From the NCBI GenBank assembly GCA_011884725.1, contig GCA_011884725.1_3919.1: 64,000 nucleotides of DNA; one strand, given 5' to 3'. This document shows positions 4,875 through 46,117 of the stretch, piece after piece. Below the pieces are notes generated by a model. The model had not been told where the DNA came from, did no database searches, and saw only the letters and a list, made by a program, of their open reading frames with translations. Source of the DNA: a phage. The position numbers and the translations under genes are program-made. The stretch's first letter is position 1, and the number at the start of each line of letters is the position of its first letter.

Positions 4875-5944
4875 TTAACCAGCACCCAATATTTTTAGGT
4901 GGTGAGAGAAAAACTTTTGACTCACTCAATAAGCACTACCCAAAAATCTTTGAACTTTATAAACAACAAAAAGCACAAGACTGGTCAGAAGATGAGTTCC
5001 CTTTTGAACAATCACGTCTTGATTTTGAGAGTGTCCCAGCATCAATGTCAGGTGTAATGCTTGAGATTCTTAAGTGGCAATGGGAAGCAGATACTCAAGT
5101 TGCTAAGAGCTTGGCATTTGCCTTTGCACCCTTTATCTCTGATGACATCTACGCAACTGCAATTATGAAGCAGTCTGAGATTGAGAACCTTCATGCTTTG
5201 ACTTACTCAGAGATTGTAAGGCAATGTATTAAAAACCCTGAAACAATCTTAGATGAGATTAACCAGAATGTTGCTGTACAAGACCGATTAAAAACTGTGA
5301 ATCGTGTTCTTGAAGAATTACTGGATGAAGGTATAAACTATCGCCTGAGTTATGTCCGTGATTCACTTCTGGACAAAGACCCTCTACACTTCCATAAAGT
5401 GATTCTGAAAGGTCTATTTGCAGTGACTGCACTGGAAGGTATATCTTTTATGGCATCCTTTGCATGTACTTTTGCACTTGATGCTCAAGATAAATTTCAG
5501 GGTATTGCTCAAGCTGTCCAGAAAATTATGCTTGATGAAATCCTTCACACTAAAATTGATATTGAAGTTTTAAAAGAAACTTTAAGAGATGATGAGTGGC
5601 AAAAAGCTTTCCAACAAATTCTTCCAGAGATTAAAGTAATCTTAGATGAAGTAGTTGAAAGTGAAGAAAAATGGTCGTATTATATCTTCTCCGAAGGACG
5701 TGCTGTAGTTGGTTTAAATACAAAGCTTCTTCATGAGTGGGTTTACTATAATGCTGCCCCACTGTATGATATGTTTGGCATTCCCAGAGATTTTGTAGCT
5801 CCTAAAGAACCACCTTTGAAGTATATGATTAAGAAGATGGAAATTGATAAAGAGCAGAATGCTAATCAGGAGCAACAGAACGGTGCGTATTTATTGAATA
5901 CTGTTGTAGATGATTTGAATAGTGGATTTTTAGAGGTTCCTTAA
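4871..5944 (+). CDS. nrdB: ribonucleoside-diphosphate reductase small subunit (class Ia)
   Basis: Start taken at ATG 4871 (AAAGGAG upstream; track start 4811 is a TTG); ferritin-like diiron-type protein (EILHTK) following nrdA. Confidence 0.85.
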   Translation: MINQHPIFLGGERKTFDSLNKHYPKIFELYKQQKAQDWSEDEFPFEQSRLDFESVPASMSGVMLEILKWQWEADTQVAKSLAFAFAPFISDDIYATAIMKQSEIENLHALTYSEIVRQCIKNPETILDEINQNVAVQDRLKTVNRVLEELLDEGINYRLSYVRDSLLDKDPLHFHKVILKGLFAVTALEGISFMASFACTFALDAQDKFQGIAQAVQKIMLDEILHTKIDIEVLKETLRDDEWQKAFQQILPEIKVILDEVVESEEKWSYYIFSEGRAVVGLNTKLLHEWVYYNAAPLYDMFGIPRDFVAPKEPPLKYMIKKMEIDKEQNANQEQQNGAYLLNTVVDDLNSGFLEVP

Positions 5945-19086: not shown

Positions 19087-19109
19087 AGGCTGCTTCGGCG
19101 GCCTTTTTT
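19087..19109 (+). terminator. rho-independent terminator AGGCTGC-TTCG-GCGGCCT + TTTTT
   Basis: Direct read after rIIB. Confidence 0.7.
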
Positions 19110-19140
19110 ATTTGTATTTTGTGCAGAGTGCTGTATAATT
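19110..19140 (+). promoter_or_regulatory. promoter-like element with TGTATAAT (extended -10-like)
   Basis: GTGCAGAGTGCTGTATAATT upstream of the 19171 gene; similar TTGTGCAGGTAGCTGTATAGG at about 23590. Confidence 0.4.
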
Positions 19141-22724: not shown

Positions 22725-23504
22725 ATGGGTATTGTAAAAGTTGTGAAAGGTAACTTACTAGCTGCCTTCAAAAACACAGACATTGAGTTAATTGCTCATG
22801 GTTGCAACTGCCGTAACCTCATGGGTGCTGGAATCGCTCAAAAAATTGCTAAGATTTTCCCAAAAGCTGAAGAAGCTGACCGGAAATTCCATAAAAAGTT
22901 TGGCTACAGCGCTCATGATATCGGATACCAGATGATTGGTGAGGTGTCACATGCTCGAACGGAGTATGGTTACATTTTTAACCTATATACACAGTTGGAT
23001 GTTGGGAAGTGTGCATCATACCGATACTTAGTGGAGTCACTAGAAAAACTCCGTAAATTTTGCTGGATGCACAACATTCGTAAGATTGGTTTACCCATGA
23101 TTGGTGCAGGTATCGGTGGTTTAGACGCACAAGCTGTGAAAAGCCTCATTAATAGCGTTATGTACAACGTTGATGTGTACCTATACGTCTATGATGAAGC
23201 AATGGCAACTGTAGTTACCCCTAAGTATGCCACCTCAGCACCACAATTCTATGATGGTGTCGTGCTAAGTGACGGTAAGTCTAACCATGTTACCCTCTAT
23301 CAGCTTGTTGATGGTAAGGTCGAGGCTAGTTACCCTCTGGTTAGTGAGATGGGTATGTGTAATAGTGAAATGTTCTCAATTGACCCGTTTGGTAGATACG
23401 AAGGGGTGTTCTTTGATAGCTACCCAGCAGCATACATCTACACAACAAATCAGGATGAAGTTCACTACTTGCTGTATTCTAAAAAGTTCAAATTCATAAA
23501 CTAA
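22725..23504 (+). CDS. macro-domain-like protein (possible ADP-ribose binding/processing)
   Basis: N-terminal VKGNLLAAFKNTDIELIAHGCNCRNLMGAGIAQKI resembles the macro-domain GD(I/L)...AIVNAAN...GGGV pattern; assignment is tentative. Confidence 0.4.
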   Translation: MGIVKVVKGNLLAAFKNTDIELIAHGCNCRNLMGAGIAQKIAKIFPKAEEADRKFHKKFGYSAHDIGYQMIGEVSHARTEYGYIFNLYTQLDVGKCASYRYLVESLEKLRKFCWMHNIRKIGLPMIGAGIGGLDAQAVKSLINSVMYNVDVYLYVYDEAMATVVTPKYATSAPQFYDGVVLSDGKSNHVTLYQLVDGKVEASYPLVSEMGMCNSEMFSIDPFGRYEGVFFDSYPAAYIYTTNQDEVHYLLYSKKFKFIN

Positions 23505-23537
23505 TTAGTGCTTCACAGCACCTATAATTAATCTAAG

Positions 23538-23584
23538 AAGGCCGCCTAACCCATTGAAAAATTTAAGGTAAGGCAGCCTTTTTC
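23538..23584 (+). terminator. terminator-like long hairpin AAGGCCGCCT...AGGCAGCCTT + TTT
   Basis: 10 bp arms with one mismatch, after the macro-domain gene. Confidence 0.4.
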
Positions 23585-23830
23585 ATTTTCAATTTGTGCA
23601 GGTAGCTGTATAGGTCTGCACAGGTGTCTCAAAAAATCTCATCGCCGGATAGAAAAATCATTTTCAAAACGTGCAGACTCCGCTCAGGTCGGGCAAGAAA
23701 AATCATTTTAGAATTGTGCAGGTAGGTTTTTATGGGGAGCCAGACCAACCCCTCTCCCCCTATTACTCCCCCTCTCCCCAAAAGTCAAGAGAAAAATTTG
23801 TAGCGGATTGAAAAATAATTCTTGATTTGT
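23580..23830 (+). repeat. four degenerate direct repeats (about 25 bp, ATTTT(C/A)AA...TGTGCAG core) plus CT-rich tract CCCCTCTCCCCCTATTACTCCCCCTCTCCCC
   Basis: Copies read at about 23583, 23653, 23697, 23807; only a probable antisense ORF here. Confidence 0.55.
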
Positions 23831-23932
23831 GTTCTGTTTTGTGGTAGTCGTGTGCGCACGTTTCATTACAGTTTTTCCAAAAATATTTTTAAAATTTTTC
23901 TTGACTCTTTGAACGGGGTTATCTAGTATTTG

Positions 23933-23992
23933 CATCAACGGGGAGGGAATGACCTTCCCCACTAAATAAAGTCCTAAACTGGAGATTCAAAA
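23933..23992 (+). repeat. type-A intergenic cassette: hairpin GGGGAGGGAATGACCTTCCCC plus conserved leader ...TAAAGTCCTAAACTGGAGATTCAAAA-ATG
   Basis: Direct read; hairpin 23940-23960; same cassette recurs at 25501-25552, 26352-26416, 27571-27640, 28712-28779 and degenerate at 29041-29109. Confidence 0.8.
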
Positions 23993-24376
23993 ATGGCATA
24001 CCGTGCACCTAAATTCATCAACAAAGACAACTTTCGCAACGCACTGGAGAAGTCACTTGATGAGAATTTTAAAGGTAACGTTATTGTTGTTCACTCATTT
24101 AATTTCAAGTATGATATCAATGGGAATAAAATCAACCATTACACGGCAACAATGCTAGATGGTACTCTTTCAAGTGAAAAAGCCATTTTACATGCACTTG
24201 CTGGACGTGGTAAAAACCTGATAAGATGCGATAAGAGACGTTATCAGGGTGGCGCATATGGTTACGATGATGCTGTTTATCATCTTGAAAATATGGGCTA
24301 TCAAGTAGAAAAAGCTGGAGTGTCTCAAATAATTGGTAGTGATGGTTACGTAACTATCTTCAAAATTAACAAATAA
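23993..24376 (+). CDS. hypothetical small protein (array gene 1)
   Basis: ORF track; conserved type-A cassette and GGAG-N9-ATG upstream. Confidence 0.55.
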   Translation: MAYRAPKFINKDNFRNALEKSLDENFKGNVIVVHSFNFKYDINGNKINHYTATMLDGTLSSEKAILHALAGRGKNLIRCDKRRYQGGAYGYDDAVYHLENMGYQVEKAGVSQIIGSDGYVTIFKINK

Positions 24377-24461
24377 AGTACTTTACAGGGGGCTTATAGT
24401 TCGATAAAGTAAGCCCCAGATAAAGAGCTTTACCACTAAATCCTAAATTGGAGATTCAAAA
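24377..24461 (+). repeat. type-B intergenic cassette: AAGTACTTTACA, hairpin GGGGCTTA...TAAGCCCC, then AGATAAAGAGCTTTACCACTAAATCCTAAA(C/T)TGGAGATTCAAAA-ATG
   Basis: Direct read; hairpin 24388-24417; recurs at 24757-24840, 25824-25910, 26619-26707 with variable loop sequence. Confidence 0.8.
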
Positions 24462-25137: not shown

Positions 25138-25463
25138 TGACTGGTATCACTGCAATCATTGCCATTTTCGCGCTCTATAAGGCATATAAAGCCTATAATC
25201 TAGCAAATAAGGCAATCACACAACAGGTTAGTAATAGCCTTGTAATGAGCTTTCTAGAGCGGTTGAGCGATGAACAATTAAAGCGGTTAGAAATGAGCTT
25301 CAGATTCAGGGCGAGAACTTATCAAATCAGCGACATTTTCAAAGATGATTTTCAATTAGTCGATGATTATAATTCTCTGATAAATGCTTTAAATATTAGT
25401 GACTTAAAAGACTATCATACTGTAATTGTTCAAGAGTTGAGCAAACGAAAACAAAACTGTTGA
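25131..25463 (+). CDS. hypothetical small membrane protein (array gene 4)
   Basis: ORF track; start overlaps upstream gene; hydrophobic N-terminus. Confidence 0.45.
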   Translation: MLMTGITAIIAIFALYKAYKAYNLANKAITQQVSNSLVMSFLERLSDEQLKRLEMSFRFRARTYQISDIFKDDFQLVDDYNSLINALNISDLKDYHTVIVQELSKRKQNC

Positions 25464-29422: not shown

Positions 29423-30992
29423 CGTCTATAAAGAGACTCTATACAGTCCCTTTCCTTTCCTTCCTAGAATCTATCCCACTAATTCGATAGAGACTATCTC
29501 ATACCTTAAAAAGCAATAACTCTATAGTCTACTCTATAACCTCTTATCAAATCAACTTAAATATAAGCCCATAACCCGAAAGGGAAGGGCAACCACTAAA
29601 ACGCTCTATAAAGCTCTATAACAGCCTTATCAATCTAACTTAAGCAATCATATTAACCTACTCTAAAAAGCCCTTTATAGAGCTTCCCAGAGCCTTAAAA
29701 GAATCTTATAAGGGTGTAAGCTTTATTATCTCGTTAGCTATCTTGTGAACTACTAAAAAGGGCTTGTTAGTGTCTTAAAAGTATGTTATAGGGGCTATAA
29801 AGTTACTTCAAAGTTACGTAAAAGGGGCTATAAAGTTACGTAAATGCTAGCCCCCTTAACATTTTCTTAACAATTTCTTAACAATCCCTACATAGTTATG
29901 CTTTTAAGGCACTTGTTAGAGACTTGTTAGCCCCTTGTTAAATCTCTGTTAAGACCACGTAAAAGCCTTGTAAGAGTCTTTAGCATAGCCTTTAAAGCCT
30001 CTGTAAAGCCCTATAAAGAGGTGTCTGTATAGTTGGGGTGTAATTACTAGGAAGAGACTTAAAAGAGCTTACAAGGAGCTATAGAGAGCTTTTAAGAGGG
30101 CTATTTAGAGAATCACTAAGAGGGAAAGGGAACGATAAGAAAAGAGATAGTGACCATGTTAATAGCTTGTTAAAAAGATTAAACACTTGTTAGGAACTTG
30201 TTAATTATCCCTACAAAATAACTCTTTAAAATTAACTTGTTAGCTCTTGTTAGTCATCTGTTAAGATTCTGTAAAGCCTATGTATCAACTGTTAAGAAAC
30301 TGTTACACCCTTGTTAGTTCTGTTAAGAATCTGTTAAGACCTCTGAAGAGATGTTAAGAAGATGTGAGAACTGTTAAGGAATTGTTAATGATATTTTAAA
30401 ATTTTGCAAAGTACTTGTAAGGGAGTTGTTAAGGGCTACCAAGCAGATATACATCTTCTACAGATATTTTTCAGTCCCTTCAAAGACCCTAAAAAATGAC
30501 TTGATAGTCCTATTTTATAAAAATTTTAAAATTCTGAATAATTACCTATACAGTCTTTTAAAAATACAGGTAATAACAGGCTTATAAGATACCTTGTTAG
30601 TACCGTGTTAGACCTTGTGAGATAAGGTCTGTAAAGATATTCCTGTTAAGTTTGTTAAAACAGTCTATATAGAGGCTTAGTATTTCCTAGTGAACACCTA
30701 TAGAGGGTAACATAGCTAACCTAGAGATTAAGAGGTGTATAGGAGCTTCTAAGAGGGTGTAGAGAGATGGTTAAGGTGATTGTATAGGTTGTTAAGAAGG
30801 CTTGTTAGAAGAGTGTTTAGAAGGGCTATACAGAGGGGCTATTAAGACCACTAGATAGATACTAAGATACTATATAGTACTATATAACTATATAGAGAGT
30901 AAGATTAAGAAGGTTGTTAAGAAGGGTAGATATTTTATTCACATATGATGGTGACCCAGCGGTTGGGACAACCGATAAATTTTATAAAAATT
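29423..30992. repeat. ORF-free region densely packed with short degenerate repeats (CTATA(A/G)AG family in the left part; (C/T)TGTTA(A/G)G family in the right part)
   Basis: No ORF of 60 aa or more on any frame; about 30 copies of TTGTTAG/CTGTTAAG-like octamers and about 12 CTATAAAG-like copies counted by eye; bounded by convergent terminators. Confidence 0.75.
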
Positions 30993-40938: not shown

Positions 40939-41015
40939 CTCTGTTTAGCTCAGCTTGGTAGAGCGTTCCGTTTGGGGCGGTAAGGCCGGAGGTTCAAGTC
41001 CTCCAACAGAGACCA
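40939..41015 (+). tRNA. tRNA-Pro (anticodon TGG)
   Basis: Acceptor CTCTGTT/AACAGAG, C1:G72, T-arm GGAGG-TTCAAGT-CCTCC, anticodon loop TTTGGGG, A73, encoded CCA. Confidence 0.75.
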
Positions 41016-41022
41016 AATTAAT

Positions 41023-41100
41023 GTTCCAGTAGACAAAATGGTAAAGTCACCACTCTTTCAAAGTGGATATCTGAGGGTTCAAATCCCTTCTGGAACGCCA
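41023..41100 (+). tRNA. tRNA-Glu (anticodon TTC)
   Basis: Acceptor GTTCCAG/CTGGAAC, anticodon stem CCACT/AGTGG loop CTTTCAA, T-loop TTCAAAT, G73, CCA. Confidence 0.75.
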
Positions 41101-41191
41101 GTTTTGACAGAAGACCAATTACAGCAAACTTAATCTTATTCATCTGAAGGTAAATCGGACAAAGAAGAGATTTGGTCTGGTCATTAAGAAT

Positions 41192-41268
41192 TGCGGGTAT
41201 AGAGAAAGGGCGTCTCACATGTCTCATTAGCATGGTATCGGCAGGTTCGACTCCTGCACCCGCCTCCA
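41192..41268 (+). tRNA. tRNA with CAT anticodon (Met or Ile2 type), atypical 5' region
   Basis: T-arm GCAGG-TTCGACT-CCTGC, 3' acceptor ACCCGCC, anticodon stem CATGT/GCATG loop CTCATTA; 5' acceptor has a 1:72 mismatch or an extra nt before the D-stem. Confidence 0.5.
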
Positions 41269-41352
41269 AATTTACAGAAGACCGTTTACAGCAAAATTGA
41301 ATGAAATTTTTAGCGGAAAAATTGAAAGATACGGTCTGGTAATACTAAACAT

Positions 41353-41426
41353 GGTTAGGAAGCACATAAGGTATGTGCGGTCGCCTGTTAAGCGAATGGC
41401 ACAGGGTTCGAATCCCTGACTAACCG
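41353..41426 (+). tRNA. tRNA-Asn (anticodon GTT)
   Basis: Acceptor GGTTAGG/ACTAACC, anticodon loop CTGTTAA, T-arm CAGGG-TTCGAAT-CCCTG, G73, no encoded CCA. Confidence 0.7.
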
Positions 41427-41438
41427 CAAAATTGAAAT

Positions 41439-41526
41439 GTGTCGTTATCCCGTAGATGGTAGCGGTGGGGACTGTAAATCCCTTGTCATTGAGACTCGGT
41501 AGGTTCGACTCCTACACGGCACACCA
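41439..41526 (+). tRNA. tRNA-Tyr (anticodon GTA), long variable arm
   Basis: 88 nt; acceptor GTGTCGT/ACGGCAC, anticodon loop CTGTAAA, T-arm GTAGG-TTCGACT-CCTAC, A73, CCA. Confidence 0.75.
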
Positions 41527-41531
41527 ATAAA

Positions 41532-41608
41532 GGCTATGTAGTTTAACTGGAGAAAATACTCCCCTGTCACGGGAGATGATGTGAGTTCAAGTCTCATCGT
41601 AGCCGCCA
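41532..41608 (+). tRNA. tRNA-Asp (anticodon GTC)
   Basis: Acceptor GGCTATG/CGTAGCC, anticodon stem CTCCC/GGGAG loop CTGTCAC, T-loop TTCAAGT, G73, CCA. Confidence 0.8.
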
Positions 41609-41837
41609 AATTATAATAAGTATTTCAAAATGATGTTTTGAGAGGGCTATTTAGCCCCTCCCTTAAAGAGTTCTTACGAGTATTCTTTAAAGGAGCAGAA
41701 GACCAAATACAGCAAGAATGTATGATATTTTCAAGCCAATCCAATTTTGAAAAAATTTAAAACTTGGTCTGGCTCAACAAATTTACAGAAGACCGTTTAC
41801 AGCAAAACTTAAACAATCTATTTCTCGGTAAAGAAAA

Positions 41838-41892
41838 GGCGAAGGTTCGATTCCTTCACTCGGCAGATGTCGAGTTGGTGTAATGGTAGCAC
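41838..41892 (+). pseudogene. tRNA remnant: 3'-half-like T-arm segment followed by 5'-half-like acceptor/D-arm segment, no intact cloverleaf
   Basis: GAAGG-TTCGATT-CCTTC-ACTCGGCA then GTCGAGTTGGTGTAATGGTAGCAC; no complementary acceptor partner found in correct order. Confidence 0.4.
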
Positions 41893-42065
41893 TTAAGATG
41901 ATAAACAACGGTCTGGTAATTATCTTTGTAGATAAGTTATTAAGCTTACCTGTGAGTATGCGACCACAAAGGGTGAAAGGGTAAATTCTAGATTTAAACC
42001 CAAAAAGGCACATCGCTACAGACCTTAAGCAAGTCTGGGTAGCTTATCTACAAAGATAATTTAAT

Positions 42066-42141
42066 GGAAGTGTAGCAGAATGGTGATGCGGCAGACTTTT
42101 AATCTGACAGGCGATGGGTTCGAATCCCTCCACTTCTACCA
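42066..42141 (+). tRNA. tRNA-Lys (anticodon TTT)
   Basis: Acceptor GGAAGTG/CACTTCT, anticodon loop CTTTTAA, T-loop TTCGAAT, A73, CCA; weak T-stem shared with the CTT Lys tRNA. Confidence 0.65.
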
Positions 42142-42145
42142 ATAT

Positions 42146-42222
42146 GGTTCAGTCGCAGATAAGGTAATGCAAGGGTCTCATAAGCCCTATGAATGTGGGT
42201 TCGATTCCCATCTGAACCTCCA
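42146..42222 (+). tRNA. tRNA-Met (anticodon CAT)
   Basis: Acceptor GGTTCAG/CTGAACC, anticodon stem AGGGT/GCCCT loop CTCATAA, T-arm GTGGG-TTCGATT-CCCAT, CCA. Confidence 0.75.
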
Positions 42223-42223
42223 A

Positions 42224-42299
42224 GCTGGTATAGTTAAGAAGGTTATAACACTCCCCTGATAAGGGAACATCGGTGGTTCGATTCCACCTACCAGTACCA
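42224..42299 (+). tRNA. tRNA-Ile (anticodon GAT)
   Basis: Acceptor GCTGGTA/TACCAGT, anticodon loop CTGATAA, T-arm GGTGG-TTCGATT-CCACC, A73, CCA. Confidence 0.7.
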
Positions 42300-42314
42300 A
42301 TTTCAATAAAGTTG

Positions 42315-42343
42315 TTGACATTGAGATGTGACTACTTTATAGT
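42315..42343 (+). promoter_or_regulatory. strong sigma70-like promoter TTGACA-17-TATAGT inside the tRNA cluster
   Basis: Direct read; followed by about 200 bp without ORF or tRNA before tRNA-Arg. Confidence 0.55.
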
Positions 42344-42545
42344 AACCTTAGTTTTCGTTGCGTAGCGTCTATTTTGCAAATTTAAAATAAATGCAAACGA
42401 CAATGTTTTTCTGGCAGTAGCTTGATAGGCTAAACACCAGTGAGGTCTTCCAATCCCTCATCAAAGAATTTGGCGTACTCGCCCACGGTATGATTAATAA
42501 GGTGGGCATCTTTAAGGGCTTTCTAAGAGAGTCTTTAAAGATAAT

Positions 42546-42622
42546 GCACCCTTAGTTCAATTGGATAGAGCAACGGTCTTCTAAATCGTTAGTTACAGGT
42601 TCGAATCCTGTAGGGTGTACCA
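42546..42622 (+). tRNA. tRNA-Arg (anticodon TCT)
   Basis: Acceptor GCACCCT/AGGGTGT, D-arm GTTCAATTGGATAGAGC, anticodon stem ACGGT/ATCGT loop CTTCTAA, T-loop TTCGAAT, A73, CCA. Confidence 0.8.
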
Positions 42623-42764
42623 AATAGTTAGCAGATTACTTAGACGGCCTTAGCGGGTCTTCCTGTAGGGAGGTGGTCTGTATCTCATGTTTTCCAGAAC
42701 ATGTAAATAATCTGAGAAGAAGCTTGACAGTGTTGAGATAACAGGGTAAGCTTCGAATTATAAT

Positions 42765-42847
42765 ATGGGACGATGTTAAGACTCTAAGGCATGAGCAACG
42801 GCCTCCAAAACCGTTTCAAAGGGGTTCAACTCCTCCGTCCCATGCCA
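42765..42847 (+). tRNA. tRNA-Trp (anticodon CCA) with enlarged D region
   Basis: Perfect acceptor ATGGGAC/GTCCCAT, anticodon stem ACGGC/ACCGT loop CTCCAAA, T-loop TTCAACT, G73, CCA; about 7 extra nt between acceptor and anticodon stem. Confidence 0.55.
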
Positions 42848-42860
42848 AAGTCTTATTAGG

Positions 42861-42948
42861 GGTAGGTAGCGGCTAATGGTAGCCAAACTGTCTTGAAAAC
42901 AGTTGCCACTGTAGAGATACGGTGAGGGTTCGACTCCTTTACTTACCG
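42861..42948 (+). tRNA. tRNA-Ser (anticodon TGA), long variable arm
   Basis: 88 nt; acceptor GGTAGGT/ACTTACC, anticodon stem ACTGT/ACAGT loop CTTGAAA, T-loop TTCGACT, G73. Confidence 0.7.
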
Positions 42949-43104
42949 CCTAATAAGATTTACTCCGTCCATGCTTGTTCGCATTGTCGGTTTATCCCTC
43001 GTGTATTGTCGTACACTGTCAAAGCACCTAGTAGGTGTCACGGAGAAGAGATAATATCAAGCTCTCCAAAGGTTCTAGTCACCGGATTAAACAAGACTAT
43101 GCAA

Positions 43105-43124
43105 AGACCTATTTAGGTCTTTTT
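43105..43124 (+). terminator. terminator-like hairpin AGACCT-ATTT-AGGTCT + TTTT inside tRNA cluster
   Basis: Direct read. Confidence 0.45.
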
Positions 43125-43204
43125 AGAGGGCTTCTAAGGTTATTAGTCGCTTGTTGTGGAACCTTGTTGCTTAGGTTCTTAGAAGTTCTCTAAAAAGATT
43201 TAAT

Positions 43205-43282
43205 GGGAGATTGACGGTAATTGGTAAACCTACCATCCTTAGAAGTTGGTGTTTGAGGGTTCGAATCCCTTGTCTCCTACCA
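43205..43282 (+). tRNA. tRNA with Leu-type anticodon TAG but short variable arm
   Basis: Acceptor GGGAGAT/GTCTCCT (two G-U pairs), D-loop AATTGGTAAA, anticodon loop CTTAGAA, T-arm GAGGG-TTCGAAT-CCCTT, A73, CCA. Confidence 0.5.
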
Positions 43283-43289
43283 AATTAAT

Positions 43290-43365
43290 GCAGGTGTAGC
43301 AAAATGGTTATGCGGCTGACTCTTAATCAGTAAGACGATGGGTTCAATTCCCTCCACCTGTACCA
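43290..43365 (+). tRNA. tRNA-Lys (anticodon CTT)
   Basis: Acceptor GCAGGTG/CACCTGT, anticodon stem GCTGA/TCAGT loop CTCTTAA, T-loop TTCAATT, A73, CCA. Confidence 0.65.
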
Positions 43366-43371
43366 AACATT

Positions 43372-43447
43372 GGGGATGTAGTTTACATGGTTAAAACATA
43401 AGTTTTGCAAACTTAAGTACAGGGTTCAATTCCCTGCTTCTCCACCA
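43372..43447 (+). tRNA. tRNA-Ala (anticodon TGC)
   Basis: G3:U70 pair in acceptor, anticodon stem TAAGT/ACTTA loop TTTGCAA, T-arm CAGGG-TTCAATT-CCCTG, A73, CCA. Confidence 0.7.
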
Positions 43448-43453
43448 ATTAGT

Positions 43454-43528
43454 GCATCCATAGTTTAAACGGGAAAATTACAGTCTTCCAAACTGAGGTT
43501 GAGGGTTCGATTCCCTCTGGATGCTCCA
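43454..43528 (+). tRNA. tRNA-Gly (anticodon TCC)
   Basis: Perfect acceptor GCATCCA/TGGATGC, anticodon loop CTTCCAA, T-arm GAGGG-TTCGATT-CCCTC, U73, CCA. Confidence 0.8.
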
Positions 43529-43534
43529 AACAAT

Positions 43535-43611
43535 GCTGCTTTCGTATAATTGGCTATTACACATCCCTTGTAAGGATGGAAATGCAGGTTCGAGTCCTGT
43601 GAGCAGCACCA
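43535..43611 (+). tRNA. tRNA-Thr (anticodon TGT)
   Basis: Acceptor GCTGCTT/GAGCAGC, anticodon stem CATCC/GGATG loop CTTGTAA, T-loop TTCGAGT, A73, CCA. Confidence 0.8.
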
Positions 43612-43707
43612 ATTCAGAGGTCAAGTGAAAGACCGCTTTGAGTCAACTGAAGACCGTAACAAATACCACGGAGTTGAGTTAGCGGCACAACTTCAGACCT
43701 CTTTCAT

Positions 43708-43782
43708 ACTCGCTTAGTTTATATGGTAAAACATCACCCTTACAAGATGAAGAAAAAGGTTCAAGTCCTTTAGTGAGTACCA
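43708..43782 (+). tRNA. tRNA-Val (anticodon TAC)
   Basis: Acceptor ACTCGCT/AGTGAGT, anticodon loop CTTACAA, T-arm AAAGG-TTCAAGT-CCTTT, A73, CCA. Confidence 0.65.
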
Positions 43783-43783
43783 T

Positions 43784-43861
43784 GTTCCAGTATCCCAATT
43801 GGCAGAGGATGCAAGCTCAAACCTTGTATTAGTGACGGTTCGAATCCGTCTTGGAACACCA
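43784..43861 (+). tRNA. tRNA with Leu-type anticodon CAA but short variable arm
   Basis: Acceptor GTTCCAG/TTGGAAC, D-loop AATTGGCAGAGGA, anticodon stem GCAAG/CTTGT loop CTCAAAC, T-arm GACGG-TTCGAAT-CCGTC, A73, CCA. Confidence 0.55.
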
Positions 43862-43866
43862 ATTTT

Positions 43867-43942
43867 GCAGGATTAGTTCAAATGGAAAGAGCAACAGTCT
43901 ACGAAGCTGTTAATAGGGGTTCGAATCCCTTATCCTGCGCCA
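43867..43942 (+). tRNA. tRNA-Arg (anticodon ACG)
   Basis: Perfect acceptor GCAGGAT/ATCCTGC, anticodon stem ACAGT/GCTGT loop CTACGAA, T-loop TTCGAAT, G73, CCA. Confidence 0.8.
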
Positions 43943-43959
43943 GATAAAAAGGTGATACT

Positions 43960-44202
43960 ATGCAAACATTAACAGTAGTTGAACATGAAAACTGTGAGAG
44001 TATTGAGTTTGTCAGGGTCATTGGTGTTGAACACCACATTTTCTTAAAAGTGGGATACTTATGTGACCCCGCTAGAGTAGAAAGATTTATACGTGATTGT
44101 TTTGGTGGTAGACATCTGAAGAGTGTTATTTTTGAGACAGTTTTACCAGAAGGTTTAGAAACGAATAATAACATTTACCTCCTTACGAGGATTAGACAAT
44201 GA
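43960..44202 (+). CDS. hypothetical protein (inside tRNA cluster)
   Basis: ORF track; AAAGGTGA upstream. Confidence 0.5.
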   Translation: MQTLTVVEHENCESIEFVRVIGVEHHIFLKVGYLCDPARVERFIRDCFGGRHLKSVIFETVLPEGLETNNNIYLLTRIRQ

Positions 44203-44756
44203 GATACTTAAAGTATGCTTCATGGATTTTCTTAGCTTTGTTAGAGCCATTTGCAGCAATCTTAGCAGTTATCTTAGCACCTTTTGTAGTTCCATTCTAC
44301 AGTGAGAAGAAAGGACACTTACCTTTCGGGTTCAGATGGATGGAGACATATGACAACCCAATTGATGGTGATGAAGGTCACGTTAAAAGATGGGCTAATA
44401 TTAGATGGATTGGTAAACTAGGTGTCTACATGCAAAGAGTCGGATGGCTCTGGAGAAACAAAGCTTATAACTTCTCTTACCATGTATTAGGAAGAGATGT
44501 AAGAGATGTTACTAAGTGGAAAGGTAATATCAACGTAAGTTCTAACCCTGAAGATAATCAGACTGGTTATCTCCTAATGTGGAACAGTAATGCTTGGGGA
44601 TTATTCGCTTTTATCCCATCAATTAAAGTCTTCGGTAAACAGTTTTACTGGAGAATTTATGTTGGATGGAAACTTAAAAGTGTTGTCCCAGAAGAAAGAG
44701 CATTCTCAAGGGAAAGAGTTATGTTGGCATTCTTTATTCATCCACTGAGAAAGTAA
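44199..44756 (+). CDS. hypothetical membrane protein (inside tRNA cluster)
   Basis: ORF track; N-terminal hydrophobic segment WIFLALLEPFAAILAVILAPFVVPF; Trp-rich. Confidence 0.5.
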   Translation: MRYLKYASWIFLALLEPFAAILAVILAPFVVPFYSEKKGHLPFGFRWMETYDNPIDGDEGHVKRWANIRWIGKLGVYMQRVGWLWRNKAYNFSYHVLGRDVRDVTKWKGNINVSSNPEDNQTGYLLMWNSNAWGLFAFIPSIKVFGKQFYWRIYVGWKLKSVVPEERAFSRERVMLAFFIHPLRK

Positions 44757-44764
44757 AGATTTAA

Positions 44765-44840
44765 AGGGGATTAGTTTACAAGGTTAAAACCTCGGTCTTT
44801 GAAATCGAAGAAGTTGGTTCAATTCCAACATCCCCCGCCA
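44765..44840 (+). tRNA. tRNA-Gln (anticodon TTG)
   Basis: Anticodon stem TCGGT/ATCGA loop CTTTGAA, T-arm GTTGG-TTCAATT-CCAAC, unpaired 1:72 and G73, CCA. Confidence 0.7.
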
Positions 44841-44842
44841 AT

Positions 44843-44921
44843 GCTCCATTACTCCAATTGGCAGAGAGGCCAGACTTAAAATCTGTGTTATGTATCGGTT
44901 CGAATCCGATATGGAGTACCA
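44843..44921 (+). tRNA. tRNA with Leu-type anticodon TAA but short variable arm
   Basis: Acceptor GCTCCAT/ATGGAGT, D-loop AATTGGCAGAGAG (paralogous to the CAA tRNA), anticodon loop CTTAAAA, T-arm ATCGG-TTCGAAT-CCGAT, A73, CCA. Confidence 0.55.
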
Positions 44922-44926
44922 AATTT

Positions 44927-45002
44927 AGCGGTATAGCATAACTGGCAATGCAGCAGTCTCTGAAGCTGTCCTATTAAGGTTCAAATCCTTATGCCGCTGC
45001 CA
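44927..45002 (+). tRNA. tRNA-Gln (anticodon CTG)
   Basis: Acceptor AGCGGTA/TGCCGCT, anticodon stem GCAGT/GCTGT loop CTCTGAA, T-arm TAAGG-TTCAAAT-CCTTA, G73, CCA. Confidence 0.7.
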
Positions 45003-45033
45003 CTTCTAAGGATTCTTACGAGAGTCCTTAAAT

Positions 45034-45109
45034 GTGGCCTTATCATAAATGGTAATGACCCATGCTGTGAACATGGTCTATACGGGTTCAAATCCCGTAG
45101 GTCACCCCA
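45034..45109 (+). tRNA. tRNA-His (anticodon GTG)
   Basis: Acceptor GTGGCCT/AGGTCAC, perfect anticodon stem CCATG/CATGG loop CTGTGAA, T-loop TTCAAAT, C73, CCA. Confidence 0.8.
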
Positions 45110-45114
45110 ATTTA

Positions 45115-45191
45115 TAGTCCAAGTAGCTTATATGGTTAAAGCGCGTGTCTGAAAAACATGAGAAGAGGGTTCAAATCCCACTGGACTACCA
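45115..45191 (+). tRNA. tRNA-Phe (anticodon GAA)
   Basis: Acceptor TAGTCCA/TGGACTA, anticodon stem CGTGT/ACATG loop CTGAAAA, T-loop TTCAAAT; exact 3' end ambiguous by 2 nt. Confidence 0.65.
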
Positions 45192-45207
45192 ATTTCAAAG
45201 GTGCTTA

Positions 45208-45942
45208 ATGAAAGAGATGACAGAACAAGGTAAGGAGATTTTCAATCTCTTAAAAACCGGTAAAGGGTTTTCTAACCCCCTTATTACTGGTGCAGCAGTT
45301 CTCGGTGGAACCGTAGCTGCCTCTACATCACTTGTAAGCTCTATTAGCTCTGTATCAGACCCTACAGTAAAGGATAAGCTTGTTGCTGCTGGACTTACAA
45401 CAGTTCTGCTTAACAGCTTTACCACGAGTCTGACAAGCACTACATCAACTACCAAAACACTAACAGATTACGGTCAAAAGTCCATTGATGAGTTTTCATC
45501 ACGTATGCAGGTAGCAAAAGGTTACTCTAATGTTATGGGTGCAGCAGGTGAACAAGTTGGCTGTACACCATTTAGTGGTATTATGGGTGTTGCTACAGAG
45601 TATGGTCAAAAAACTATTGATACGATTAACAGTGTACTAGATAGTGTTAATGGTGTGTTAAGTGACTTACAAGATGCTATTGACAAAGGTCTTGATACTA
45701 TTTCTGATTTAGCTGAGCAAGCTGTTAGTAAGATTAATGAAGGTATTTCAAAAATTACAGCTTATGCAGATGAAGTTGTGCAGATGATTGAAGAAGAAGC
45801 TGCTCTTATTGCAGAGTACCTTAAAACGAATATCAATGGGTTCTTAGCAGGTATCTTACCAGACTGGTTTGATGATGCTTGTAAAACTGGTGTAATTGAC
45901 ACTATTGCAACACCAGAAATGAAGAACGCATTACAGAAATAA
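45208..45942 (+). CDS. hypothetical Ser/Thr-rich protein
   Basis: Start set to ATG 45208 (track ORF start 45145 lies inside the tRNA-Phe gene); stop 45940-45942 sits 2 nt before a tRNA. Confidence 0.45.
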   Translation: MKEMTEQGKEIFNLLKTGKGFSNPLITGAAVLGGTVAASTSLVSSISSVSDPTVKDKLVAAGLTTVLLNSFTTSLTSTTSTTKTLTDYGQKSIDEFSSRMQVAKGYSNVMGAAGEQVGCTPFSGIMGVATEYGQKTIDTINSVLDSVNGVLSDLQDAIDKGLDTISDLAEQAVSKINEGISKITAYADEVVQMIEEEAALIAEYLKTNINGFLAGILPDWFDDACKTGVIDTIATPEMKNALQK

Positions 45943-45944
45943 AT

Positions 45945-46037
45945 GGAAGATTAACCCTAAAAGGTAAGGGAGCAGTTTGCTAAACTGCCAGTAGCTGAGA
46001 AATCGGTGTACCAGTTCAAGTCTGGTATCTTCCTCCA
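45945..46037 (+). tRNA. tRNA-Ser (anticodon GCT), long variable arm
   Basis: 93 nt; perfect acceptor GGAAGAT/ATCTTCC, perfect anticodon stem GCAGT/ACTGC loop TTGCTAA, T-arm ACCAG-TTCAAGT-CTGGT, CCA. Confidence 0.7.
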
Positions 46038-46041
46038 ATTT

Positions 46042-46117
46042 GAATCCGTGACAGAAACGGCTATGTGCCTGTCTGCAAAACAGGTTTATAAGGGTTCGAG
46101 TCCCTTCGGATTCTCCA
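46042..46117 (+). tRNA. tRNA-Cys (anticodon GCA)
   Basis: Perfect acceptor GAATCCG/CGGATTC, perfect anticodon stem CCTGT/ACAGG loop CTGCAAA, T-arm AAGGG-TTCGAGT-CCCTT, U73, CCA. Confidence 0.8.

Follow-up and report, generated by a model that had tools for sequence, protein, structure and literature searches.

An array of conserved bipartite direct repeats, probably bound by a protein, precedes the early small-gene array of a Felix O1-like phage

Introduction

A replication origin of the lambda type is built from four iterons and their A tracts, together with an AT-rich stretch and a palindrome. Here, we describe an array of direct repeats in a non-coding gap (positions 23505–23992) of a 64,000-nucleotide stretch of DNA (contig GCA_011884725.1_3919.1; hereafter, the window) from a Felix O1-like (Ounavirinae) myovirus. 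The gap lies between a gene encoding a Macro domain product and the first member of an early array of small genes. With iteron and operator arrays, such as the lambda origin and T4 oriE, the locus shares direct repeats of ~20 bp that occur several times in one orientation, have conserved cores and adjacent A/T tracts, and are nearly confined to one place, next to an AT-rich, promoter-bearing stretch and a small palindrome. It differs by its irregular spacing (37–75 bp), by lacking a pronounced unwinding element, and by an additional copy embedded in a promoter.

Four further systems resemble the locus in part. The PeSL cassettes of T4-like phages (PMC2839356, PMC4122927) are similar to the stem-loop and sigma-70 cassettes between the small, variable genes of the neighbouring gene array; the repeat units share their cassette descent, and the gap their position at a recombination/indel junction. 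The units differ in that they have neither stem-loop nor −10, stand in tandem without intervening genes, and are far more deeply conserved. In T5, the injection-stop signal is located at 7.9%, within a conserved region of untranslated repeats whose conservation exceeds that of the adjacent open reading frames (ORFs) (bioRxiv 10.1101/866236). The gap is likewise an untranslated repeat region that lies ~8% from a genome end and bounds an early-gene block; it differs in lying outside the short terminal repeat and in having no DnaA boxes and no large inverted repeats. ToxI arrays and pseudo-ToxI (PMC3475682) are alike in their tandem units of ~37–45 nt, in a minus-strand promoter-like site plus terminator, and in A-rich sites, whereas the units described here show no significant ToxI similarity, are degenerate and unevenly spaced, had no matching host array in the plasmids and genomes searched, and interchange A5 and T5. 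Finally, one promoter of the gap (P1: near-consensus UP element, TTGACT, 17 bp, TAGTAT) is of the type of T7 A1–A3 and the T5 early promoters with UP elements; the gap differs in having only one such promoter, preceded by repeats that are not promoters themselves.

The array is not among the features given in the Felix O1 paper, which include the terminator, a number of promoters, and repeats no shorter than 24 bp; the paper states that temporal control of Felix O1 transcription and the place where replication starts are unknown (PMC3185647). Beyond that paper, a non-exhaustive literature search found no description of the array.

Results

Repeat units and their significance

The original prediction described 23505–23992 as a non-coding stretch with four degenerate direct repeats and a CT-rich tract. 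Its coordinates are correct and delimit a 488-base gap between ORF 22725–23504 on the left and ORF 23993–24376 on the right. Its non-coding nature was also borne out. Candidate ORFs on either strand vary in frame among phages and units, start with a TTG inside a −35 hexamer or have no start, are truncated in the window and in ESh20, and contain indels that are not multiples of three. Two coding sequences annotated in databases overlie the repeats and the CT-rich tract, namely wV8 gp013 (locus L001, 5902–6066) and BPS17L1 FDJ21_gp012 (locus L002, 3409–3636, minus strand). Both are inconsistent in frame across relatives and very probably not genes.

The repeats themselves are real. Each unit is bipartite (A5 or T5, TCATTT, N7, GTGCAG), and the window contains three copies, all on the plus strand:

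23578–23604, plus strand: R1, consisting of T5 (which is also the terminator tail), TCATTT (23583–23588), N7, GTGCAG (23596–23601), and GTA
23652–23678, plus strand: R2, consisting of G, A5, TCATTT (23658–23663), N7, and GTGCAG (23671–23676)
23697–23726, plus strand: R3, the last unit, present in all relatives, consisting of G, A5, TCATTT (23703–23708), N7, GTGCAG (23716–23721), and GTAGG
23605–23622, plus strand: R1-specific tail, GCTGTATAGG, a degenerate −10 paralogous to GCTGTATAAT (19130–19139), with an inverted partial copy CTGCACA (23616–23622)

The motif TCATTT-N7-GTGCAG starts at 23583, 23658, and 23703, corresponding to spacings of 75 and 45 bp. Its two hexamers are 13 bp apart from start to start, and the defined core comprises 22 bp. 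Three strict matches were found against 0.06 expected per 64 kb on both strands (300 Markov resamples, maximum 2), and two matches to a longer consensus against 0.02 expected. Within the window, the strict motif is confined to the gap. In the complete Felix O1 genome (86,155 bp), it occurs four times, always on the plus strand and always in the homologous gap. A single relaxed copy outside the gap lies in a promoter after the rIIB terminator (19104–19139). Several same-orientation direct repeats at one locus, apart from the relaxed copy at 19110, correspond to what is found in iterons, and the earlier term "iteron-like element" fits the anatomy of these genome-unique bipartite repeats with an A or T tract beside each.

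Three clear copies, not four, are present in the window. The supposed fourth (23810–23831, GAAAAATAATTCTTGATTTGTG) lacks GTGCAG and has only the A5T/AT-rich part (GAAAAAT.ATT) in common with the units, as member of repeat family D1 of the repeat search; it is the upstream/−35 part of a promoter-like site. A count of four is correct for the phage family and incorrect for the lineage of the window phage. As to the R1-specific tail, its TATAGG has no −7 T and becomes TAGGGG or GAGGGG in close relatives, and the inverted copy CTGCACA is not kept, reading CTGTACA in BPS17L1, finno, and Si3.

Conservation of the array

Conservation in related phages was one point on which the original prediction turned, and the repeats are clearly conserved. 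From GenBank phages and IMG/VR contigs, we compiled 32 distinct sequences of this region, which contain 122 units (84 distinct). TCATTT is invariant in all of them, GTGCAG shows one variant at each of two positions, and the seven bases between the half-sites are semi-conserved (TCAAWWY). The homopolymer preceding TCATTT is always A4–5T or T5, with both forms found at equivalent ranks. Copy number is four in 26 of the distinct sequences and three in the other six. Overall, five lineages have the array at this locus, with three to five copies in one orientation, and in the most divergent ones the flanking protein is only 31–43% identical. A comparison of Felix O1 with Citrobacter phage Maleficent, which belongs to another genus, illustrates the local constraint: DNA identity is 68% and 63% in the genes on either side and rises to 87–97% in 30-base windows over the repeats and the block that follows them.

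An Erwinia Kolesnikvirus, found by tblastn with the phosphatase (43% identity over 58% of the protein), carries at the same locus and in this order a terminator, four units, a short C-rich tract, and a back-to-back promoter pair. Its units stand in tandem at 37–39 bp and read (T5/A5)TCATTTT.AATTTGTGCATAG, with GTGCATAG as variant of the GTGCAG half-site. Five units are found at the same place in a more distant contig whose phosphatase is 31% identical. In contig IMGVR_UViG_3300045988_063805 (reverse complement of 5330–5800), from a divergent relative, five units are directly followed by a TTAACA-rich tract, a promoter, and a gene. This tract is similar to a motif of the terminal repeat in Felix O1-like phages and may link the array to the terminus region in that lineage.

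A similar array was sought in plasmids, 5,426 E. coli genomes, and enterobacterial species genomes, and none was found. Scanning the genome collection for two adjacent units returned 41 matches, none of them enterobacterial; the ten loci inspected were tandem repeats in unrelated bacteria, several of them plainly coding. The corresponding viral scan returned mainly tail-fibre-like coding repeats and one divergent relative. An Ignavibacteria metagenome-assembled genome (CAVVVP010000010.1; locus L085, 1290–1420) contains five tandem copies of a 32-bp repeat, CTCATTTTCCATTTGTGCAAGGGG. A Mu Gam-like gene lies ~340 bp downstream of them, and the surroundings look like a mobile element. These repeats match the Erwinia-phage core at 18/19 positions, which is borderline for chance.

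The motif is bipartite, almost confined to one locus, present in one orientation, conserved above its neighbours, indifferent to A/T exchange in its homopolymer, and embedded once in a promoter. Because of these properties, we favour recognition of duplex DNA by a protein, and the repeats probably form a functional protein-binding array, whatever its output. The interchange of A5 and T5 is what one would expect if the homopolymer shaped the groove of double-stranded DNA or bent the duplex, and not if it were an RNA signal.

Upstream terminator and a related promoter cassette

The array starts directly at a terminator, and a paralogous arrangement is found further to the left:

23537–23582, plus strand: intrinsic terminator of the upstream operon, a predicted hairpin whose long stem (AAGGCCGCCTAACC / GGTAAGGCAGCCTT) encloses a loop of 14 nt and is followed by a tail of T5
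19088–19139, plus strand: related single copy with the rIIB terminator, GGCTGCTTCGGCGGCC plus T6, ATTT-N7-GTGCAG (19110–19126), 7 nt, and TATAAT (19134–19139)

The terminator at 23537–23582, listed as "t13" in the Felix O1 paper (PMC3185647), combines a hairpin with a U run and covariation. Over nine distinct versions, the consensus structure has 13 pairs, two of which show compensatory double changes, and its sole broken cell is a C.A in the window sequence. The original prediction had noted that GTAGCTGTATAGG resembles an element near 19115. This resemblance is genuine homology, as 19088–19139 and 23565–23614 align base for base through terminator, T tract, half-sites, and −10 position. The sequence after the rIIB terminator is GGCGGCC-TTTTTT-ATTT-GTATTTT-GTGCAG-AGTGCTG-TATAAT, and that after the gap terminator is GGCAGCC-TTTTT-CATTT-TCAATTT-GTGCAG-GTAGCTG-TATAGG. 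The promoter at 19104–19139 is complete, stands 32 nt before the start of the next gene, carries the motif at about −38 to −20, and drives the operon that ends at the 23537 terminator. Its GTGCAG (~−25 to −20) is invariant in Felixounavirus and Mooglevirus contigs, in which the flanking spacer bases vary.

The part of the array units upstream of the A/T tract furthermore resembles the 3′ arm of the terminator (TCAGGTAAGGAGGGC vs. TCAGGTCGGGCAAGA), and T5(C/T)ATTT is the common tail of three plus-strand terminators. Because of this tail and the likeness to both 19088–19139 and the terminator arm, the units are tandem duplicates of a cassette made of a terminator tail and the upstream half of a promoter, in which the −10 was lost and the two hexamers were kept under strong constraint. 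The same likenesses could be read as recombination debris, i.e., terminator-promoter cassettes degraded by slippage or gene loss in a hyperplastic region and kept only as homology patches for module exchange. Degraded "half PeSLs" near indels are known in T4-like phages (PMC4122927), and the gap is indeed a mosaic junction, where most combinations of left allele, tract type, and first downstream gene are represented and one or two extra small genes are inserted in relatives directly to the right of the conserved block. However, if the units were neutral remnants, their 84 distinct versions would not retain two invariant or near-invariant hexamers a fixed distance apart. Nor would three to five copies persist in one orientation at such low flanking-protein identities, with conservation above that of the flanking genes. 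We consider debris unlikely and return to constraint on protein-binding sites as the better account of the units.

The PeSL pattern does fit the downstream spacers, e.g., TTTACA-17-TAAAGT around a hairpin at 24382–24410. It does not describe the units, which have no stem-loop, no −10, and no genes between them. The spacers of the small-gene array, from 24377–24461 to ~29800, consist of composite cassettes with TTTACA, a hairpin (GGGGCTTA...TAAGCCCC), TAAAGT, and a Shine-Dalgarno sequence; these PeSL-like terminator/promoter modules are annotated as DR_1 to DR_9 in wV8. Strong TTGACA promoters are located within the small-gene array at 25460, 26324, 28015, and 28689.

CT-rich tract and promoter-like sites

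The right part of the gap contains the following features, for which promoters were called by consensus scoring, either in bits of a position weight matrix (PWM) or by a tool scan with a maximum of 12:

23732–23780, no strand assigned: CT-rich tract with a perfect homopyrimidine mirror repeat, CCCCTCTCCCCC-TATTACT-CCCCCTCTCCCC, at 23749–23779, of the H-DNA/i-motif type
23760–23788, minus strand: P(L), leftward promoter-like site with −35 TTGACT (reverse complement of 23783–23788), 17 bp, and −10 TAATAG (reverse complement of 23760–23765)
23810–23850, plus strand: P2, weak rightward promoter-like site with UP-like GAAAAATAATTC, −35 TTGATT (23822–23827), 17 bp, and TG-extended −10 TAGTCG (23845–23850); PWM 4.3
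23849–23860, no strand assigned: GC-rich alternating purine-pyrimidine 12-mer, CGTGTGCGCACG, containing the palindrome GTGCGCAC
23878–23929, plus strand: P1, predicted promoter of the small-gene array, with near-consensus UP element CAAAAATATTTTTAAAATTTTTC, −35 TTGACT (23901–23906), 17 bp, and −10 TAGTAT (23924–23929)
23940–23992, plus strand: 5′ leader of the first small gene, with hairpin GGGGAGGGAATGACCTTCCCC (23940–23960), Shine-Dalgarno sequence GGAG (23981–23984), and ATG at 23993

The CT-rich tract is exactly as quoted in the original prediction and indeed unusual, as no other 45-mer of the window is as rich in C (25 C vs. a mean of 8.1, standard deviation 2.6). Its mirror symmetry was read off the sequence directly. 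On the minus strand, 23749–23779 is the sole canonical G-quadruplex (G4) motif of the 64-kb window, and the corresponding Felix O1 tract is the only one in that genome. As a sequence motif, it qualifies for both G-quadruplex (four runs of at least three G with loops of at most 7) and H-DNA (mirror repeat). The tract core CCCCTCTTACTCCCC is kept as far as Mooglevirus. In ~14 of the 32 distinct relatives, an unrelated segment that is G-rich on the plus strand ("type B") replaces the tract. Whatever its role, the tract can thus be either dispensed with or substituted by another device, which is one reason why we regard it as an accessory of the repeats.

The 80 bp following the tract are 76–100% identical across genera and contain two back-to-back promoter-like sites. 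P(L) is directed into the repeat array. In the window, it scores 6.2 bits and is weak without a −7 T; in type-B relatives, its −35 is kept and the type-B segment supplies a good −10 (TAGCCT with TG, 12.3 bits). On this pattern, P(L) may be taken as a putative promoter. In the Erwinia phage, both members of the pair are strong (leftward TTGACG-18-TATACT, 13.2 bits; rightward TTGACT-17-TATATT). In the 12-mer, alternation is maintained despite sequence change between lineages (CGCGCGCAC, CGCATACGTGCG, and TGCGTACACGCG, read directly from the sequences). P1 has the sequence of a sigma-70 promoter at 23901–23929 (12.3 bits; 9/12 in the tool scan; upstream A+T 22/25) with a predicted start at ~23936, and is found at the same place in 32/32 distinct relatives. 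The leader that follows is the counterpart of wV8 repeat "DR_6", which recurs before another array gene.

The idea of a control region thus stood insofar as the first promoter of the small-gene array and two weaker promoter-like sites are present. It did not stand for the repeats, which the original prediction had proposed as a multi-promoter region, i.e., tandem promoters, one per repeat, that drive the small-gene array. Weak −35-like hexamers (TTTTCA, TTTCAA) do follow the A/T tract in units, R1 of some relatives is followed at 17 bp by TAGAGT, TATATT, or TATAGT (8.3–9.6 bits), and the paralogous cassette at 19104–19139 is a promoter. Scores of 8–10 bits, however, arise by chance about once per 280–470 bp of genome, and no unit of the window exceeds 4.3 bits on the plus strand, compared with 12.3 for 23901–23929. 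The putative −10 positions are not conserved in the 84 distinct units, no Erwinia-phage unit has a −10, and at 37–45 bp from one another, the units could not all be occupied by polymerase. One promoter per unit is therefore very improbable.

A replication origin would account for other traits of the gap. An initiator or a helicase loader would use the repeats as iterons, with the A/T tracts bending the DNA, the leftward promoter activating or priming the origin, and the G/C-skewed tract stabilising an open or R-loop state. Same-orientation repeats with adjacent A tracts, confined to the gap save for one relaxed copy, recall the lambda-type layout; in type-B relatives and the Erwinia phage, a promoter is aimed into the array, which is adjoined by the genome's only G4/H-DNA motif. 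Against an origin, no marked unwinding element is present (the least stable stretch within 23776–23910 ranks only in the top 7–11% for nearest-neighbour instability, and the minima of the window lie at 30445–30950), no initiator gene is adjacent, the G-rich strand switches between type A and type B, the spacing is irregular, and one copy clearly lies within an ordinary promoter. DnaA boxes (TTWTNCACA) were rejected as well: no window unit comes within two mismatches, and only the Erwinia-phage variant CTATGCACA comes within one. An origin is accordingly an unlikely function for the gap.

Type III antitoxin genes are organised as promoter, repeats, and terminator (PMC5086642), and this order is found on the minus strand in type-B relatives and the Erwinia phage. 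It could specify a leftward non-coding RNA that ends at a bidirectional terminator and acts as a protein sponge or as a type III antitoxin mimic, a role with a phage-borne precedent in pseudo-ToxI (PMC3475682). The Erwinia-phage units recur regularly at 37–39 nt, and every minus-strand unit contains AAAUGA, which includes the A-rich AAAU cut by ToxN-type nucleases. ToxIN plasmids are also common in E. coli and Salmonella; we verified the 36-nt ToxI repeat at 100% in pECA1039, 49 Escherichia plasmids, and 12 Salmonella plasmids. Local alignment of this repeat to the gap, however, was no better than to shuffles (z below 1), and no host counterpart array was found in the plasmids, E. coli genomes, and enterobacterial species genomes searched. 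Near-identical repeats of fixed length (~34–45 nt), as in type III antitoxins, are not present in the window, where the units are loosely alike, agree mainly in the 22-bp core, and are unevenly spaced at 75 and 45 bp. A5 and U5 are not interchangeable in RNA, and the leftward −10 is weak in the window. Folding of either strand was no better than that of shuffles (z −1.0 to −1.5), and an Rfam search of the window yielded nothing at gathering thresholds except tRNAs at 40.9–46.1 kb, with only chance-level matches at E up to 5. We regard such an RNA as quite unlikely, even more so than an origin.

Compared by eye only, CRP, Fis, IHF, Fur, and ArgR sites, as well as the MarA-box, sigma-54, sigma-E, sigma-32, and ops/RfaH, did not fit all units.

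Gene context and genome ends

Megablast of 23300–24200 matched 232 phage records, nearly all of them Felix O1-like phages from Escherichia and Salmonella, with BPS17L1, ECML-1, and pSJ21 (94% each) as the closest. In annotated relatives, the genes to the left are, in order, rIIA, rIIB, polynucleotide kinase, spanins, small genes, and the "phosphatase"/macro-domain gene, whose window counterpart is ORF 22725–23504. To the right, starting with ORF 23993–24376, follows a run of small hypothetical genes with annotated direct repeats between them. A sharp mosaic boundary with wV8-type phages is located at 23658, within R2, where the BLAST matches of ~200 relatives begin and extend rightward only; in the window phage, a divergent allele with ~52% DNA identity to the wV8/Felix O1 type spans the macro-domain gene plus the left third of the gap. 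In phages finno (locus L003, 2183–2390) and warpig (locus L016, ~1225–1432), the supposedly long intergenic gap contains an unannotated 68-codon ORF (MLYSREL...) whose homologue is annotated as the first gene of the array in Felix O1 and Si3.

Two database records end within the gap, and a genome terminus or pac region was suspected on these grounds. The 41.6-kb FSL SP-107 record (KC139638.1) ends at ~23961, within the hairpin of the P1 leader. The Andreotti assembly (MN850610.1; locus L011, 1–300, and the end of locus L012) breaks exactly at the start of the CT tract, with inverted-duplication artefacts at the record ends. Judging from these records, the region seems hard to assemble. A terminus was rejected, as the 581-bp terminal repeat of Pr103Blw, defined by PhageTerm (PMC8303462), maps 6 kb to the right, at 29850–30440, with 89% identity. 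The physical genome ends thus lie at 29850–30440 of the window, in a region dense in CTTAACA / YTGTTAR repeats. The record ends of UAB_Phi87 are located in the tRNA region and were uninformative; in the window, 24 tRNA genes are clustered on the plus strand at 40939–46114. Immediately to the right of the terminal repeat, 30445–30950 is the least stable duplex of the window (nearest-neighbour free energy, windows of 60–150 bp) and a candidate unwinding region.

The distance between the start of the gap and the right physical end at 30440 is 6.9 kb (~8% of the genome length). By analogy with the T5 injection-stop region, the repeats could mark the inner end of an early-gene segment that enters the cell first. 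If this were true, the rest of the genome would be held back while the terminal 8%, i.e., the early small-gene array, is expressed. Nothing indicates two-step injection in any Felix O1-like phage, however, the units are not DnaA boxes, and the distance to the terminus should differ between relatives, as the number of array genes does. We give this checkpoint hardly any credence. Taken more broadly, the array, the mirror-repeat/G4 tract, and the leftward promoter could together form a subfamily-wide, single-copy site of genome handling, either a replication origin or a T5-like entry checkpoint, which we likewise hold to be unlikely.

Discussion

By its sequence, the array would be classed as a direct-repeat array of the operator/iteron type, with an unusual ancestry and an unusual neighbour, the genome's only G4/H-DNA motif. 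We propose that the gap acts as a conserved cis-acting control region where two blocks meet, namely the operon that runs from rIIB to the macro-domain gene and the array of early small genes, which extends as far as the right terminus. The repeats would be duplex-DNA sites for one sequence-specific protein, bound in the manner of an operator or iteron, and this protein may be phage-encoded or associated with RNA polymerase. Positioned at a single promoter site and at three to four clustered sites past the operon terminator, such a factor would set how much transcription crosses the boundary, both as read-through from the left and as leftward transcription from the back-to-back promoter region. 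The pyrimidine mirror repeat/G4 tract may add a further barrier or structural feature. The sequences show the anatomy of the array, its uniqueness in the genome, its deep conservation, and the exclusions described above. We infer the binding of a protein, the nature of that protein, and a transcriptional instead of a replicative output; the transcription-boundary version can be put forward only tentatively, with clearly less assurance than protein binding as such.

Several observations weigh against protein binding at a transcription boundary. None of the eight neighbouring gene products has a recognisable DNA-binding domain. Unit spacing is neither constant nor helix-phased (37–39, 39–45, and 73–75 bp), and the 13-bp separation of the half-sites is not a whole helical turn. 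The extra promoter-embedded copy was not found near rIIB of the Erwinia phage. As the CT tract is swapped for unrelated sequence in relatives, no one fixed form of it is indispensable, and the promoters were called by consensus scoring only. A literature search, moreover, returned neither a transcriptome nor a footprint for any Felix O1-like phage.

For annotation, wV8 gp013 and the "hypothetical protein" of BPS17L1 call for correction, as they overlie the repeats. For engineering, the gap marks a safe/unsafe site for insertions, since relatives gain and lose genes directly to its right. Felix O1-like phages are in wide use for Salmonella/E. coli typing, biocontrol, and therapy. The gap is the best-conserved non-coding element of a highly variable part of their genome, and its 22-bp core offers a probe for fishing the binding factor. 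The array bears on transcription timing and on the start of replication in Felix O1-like phages.

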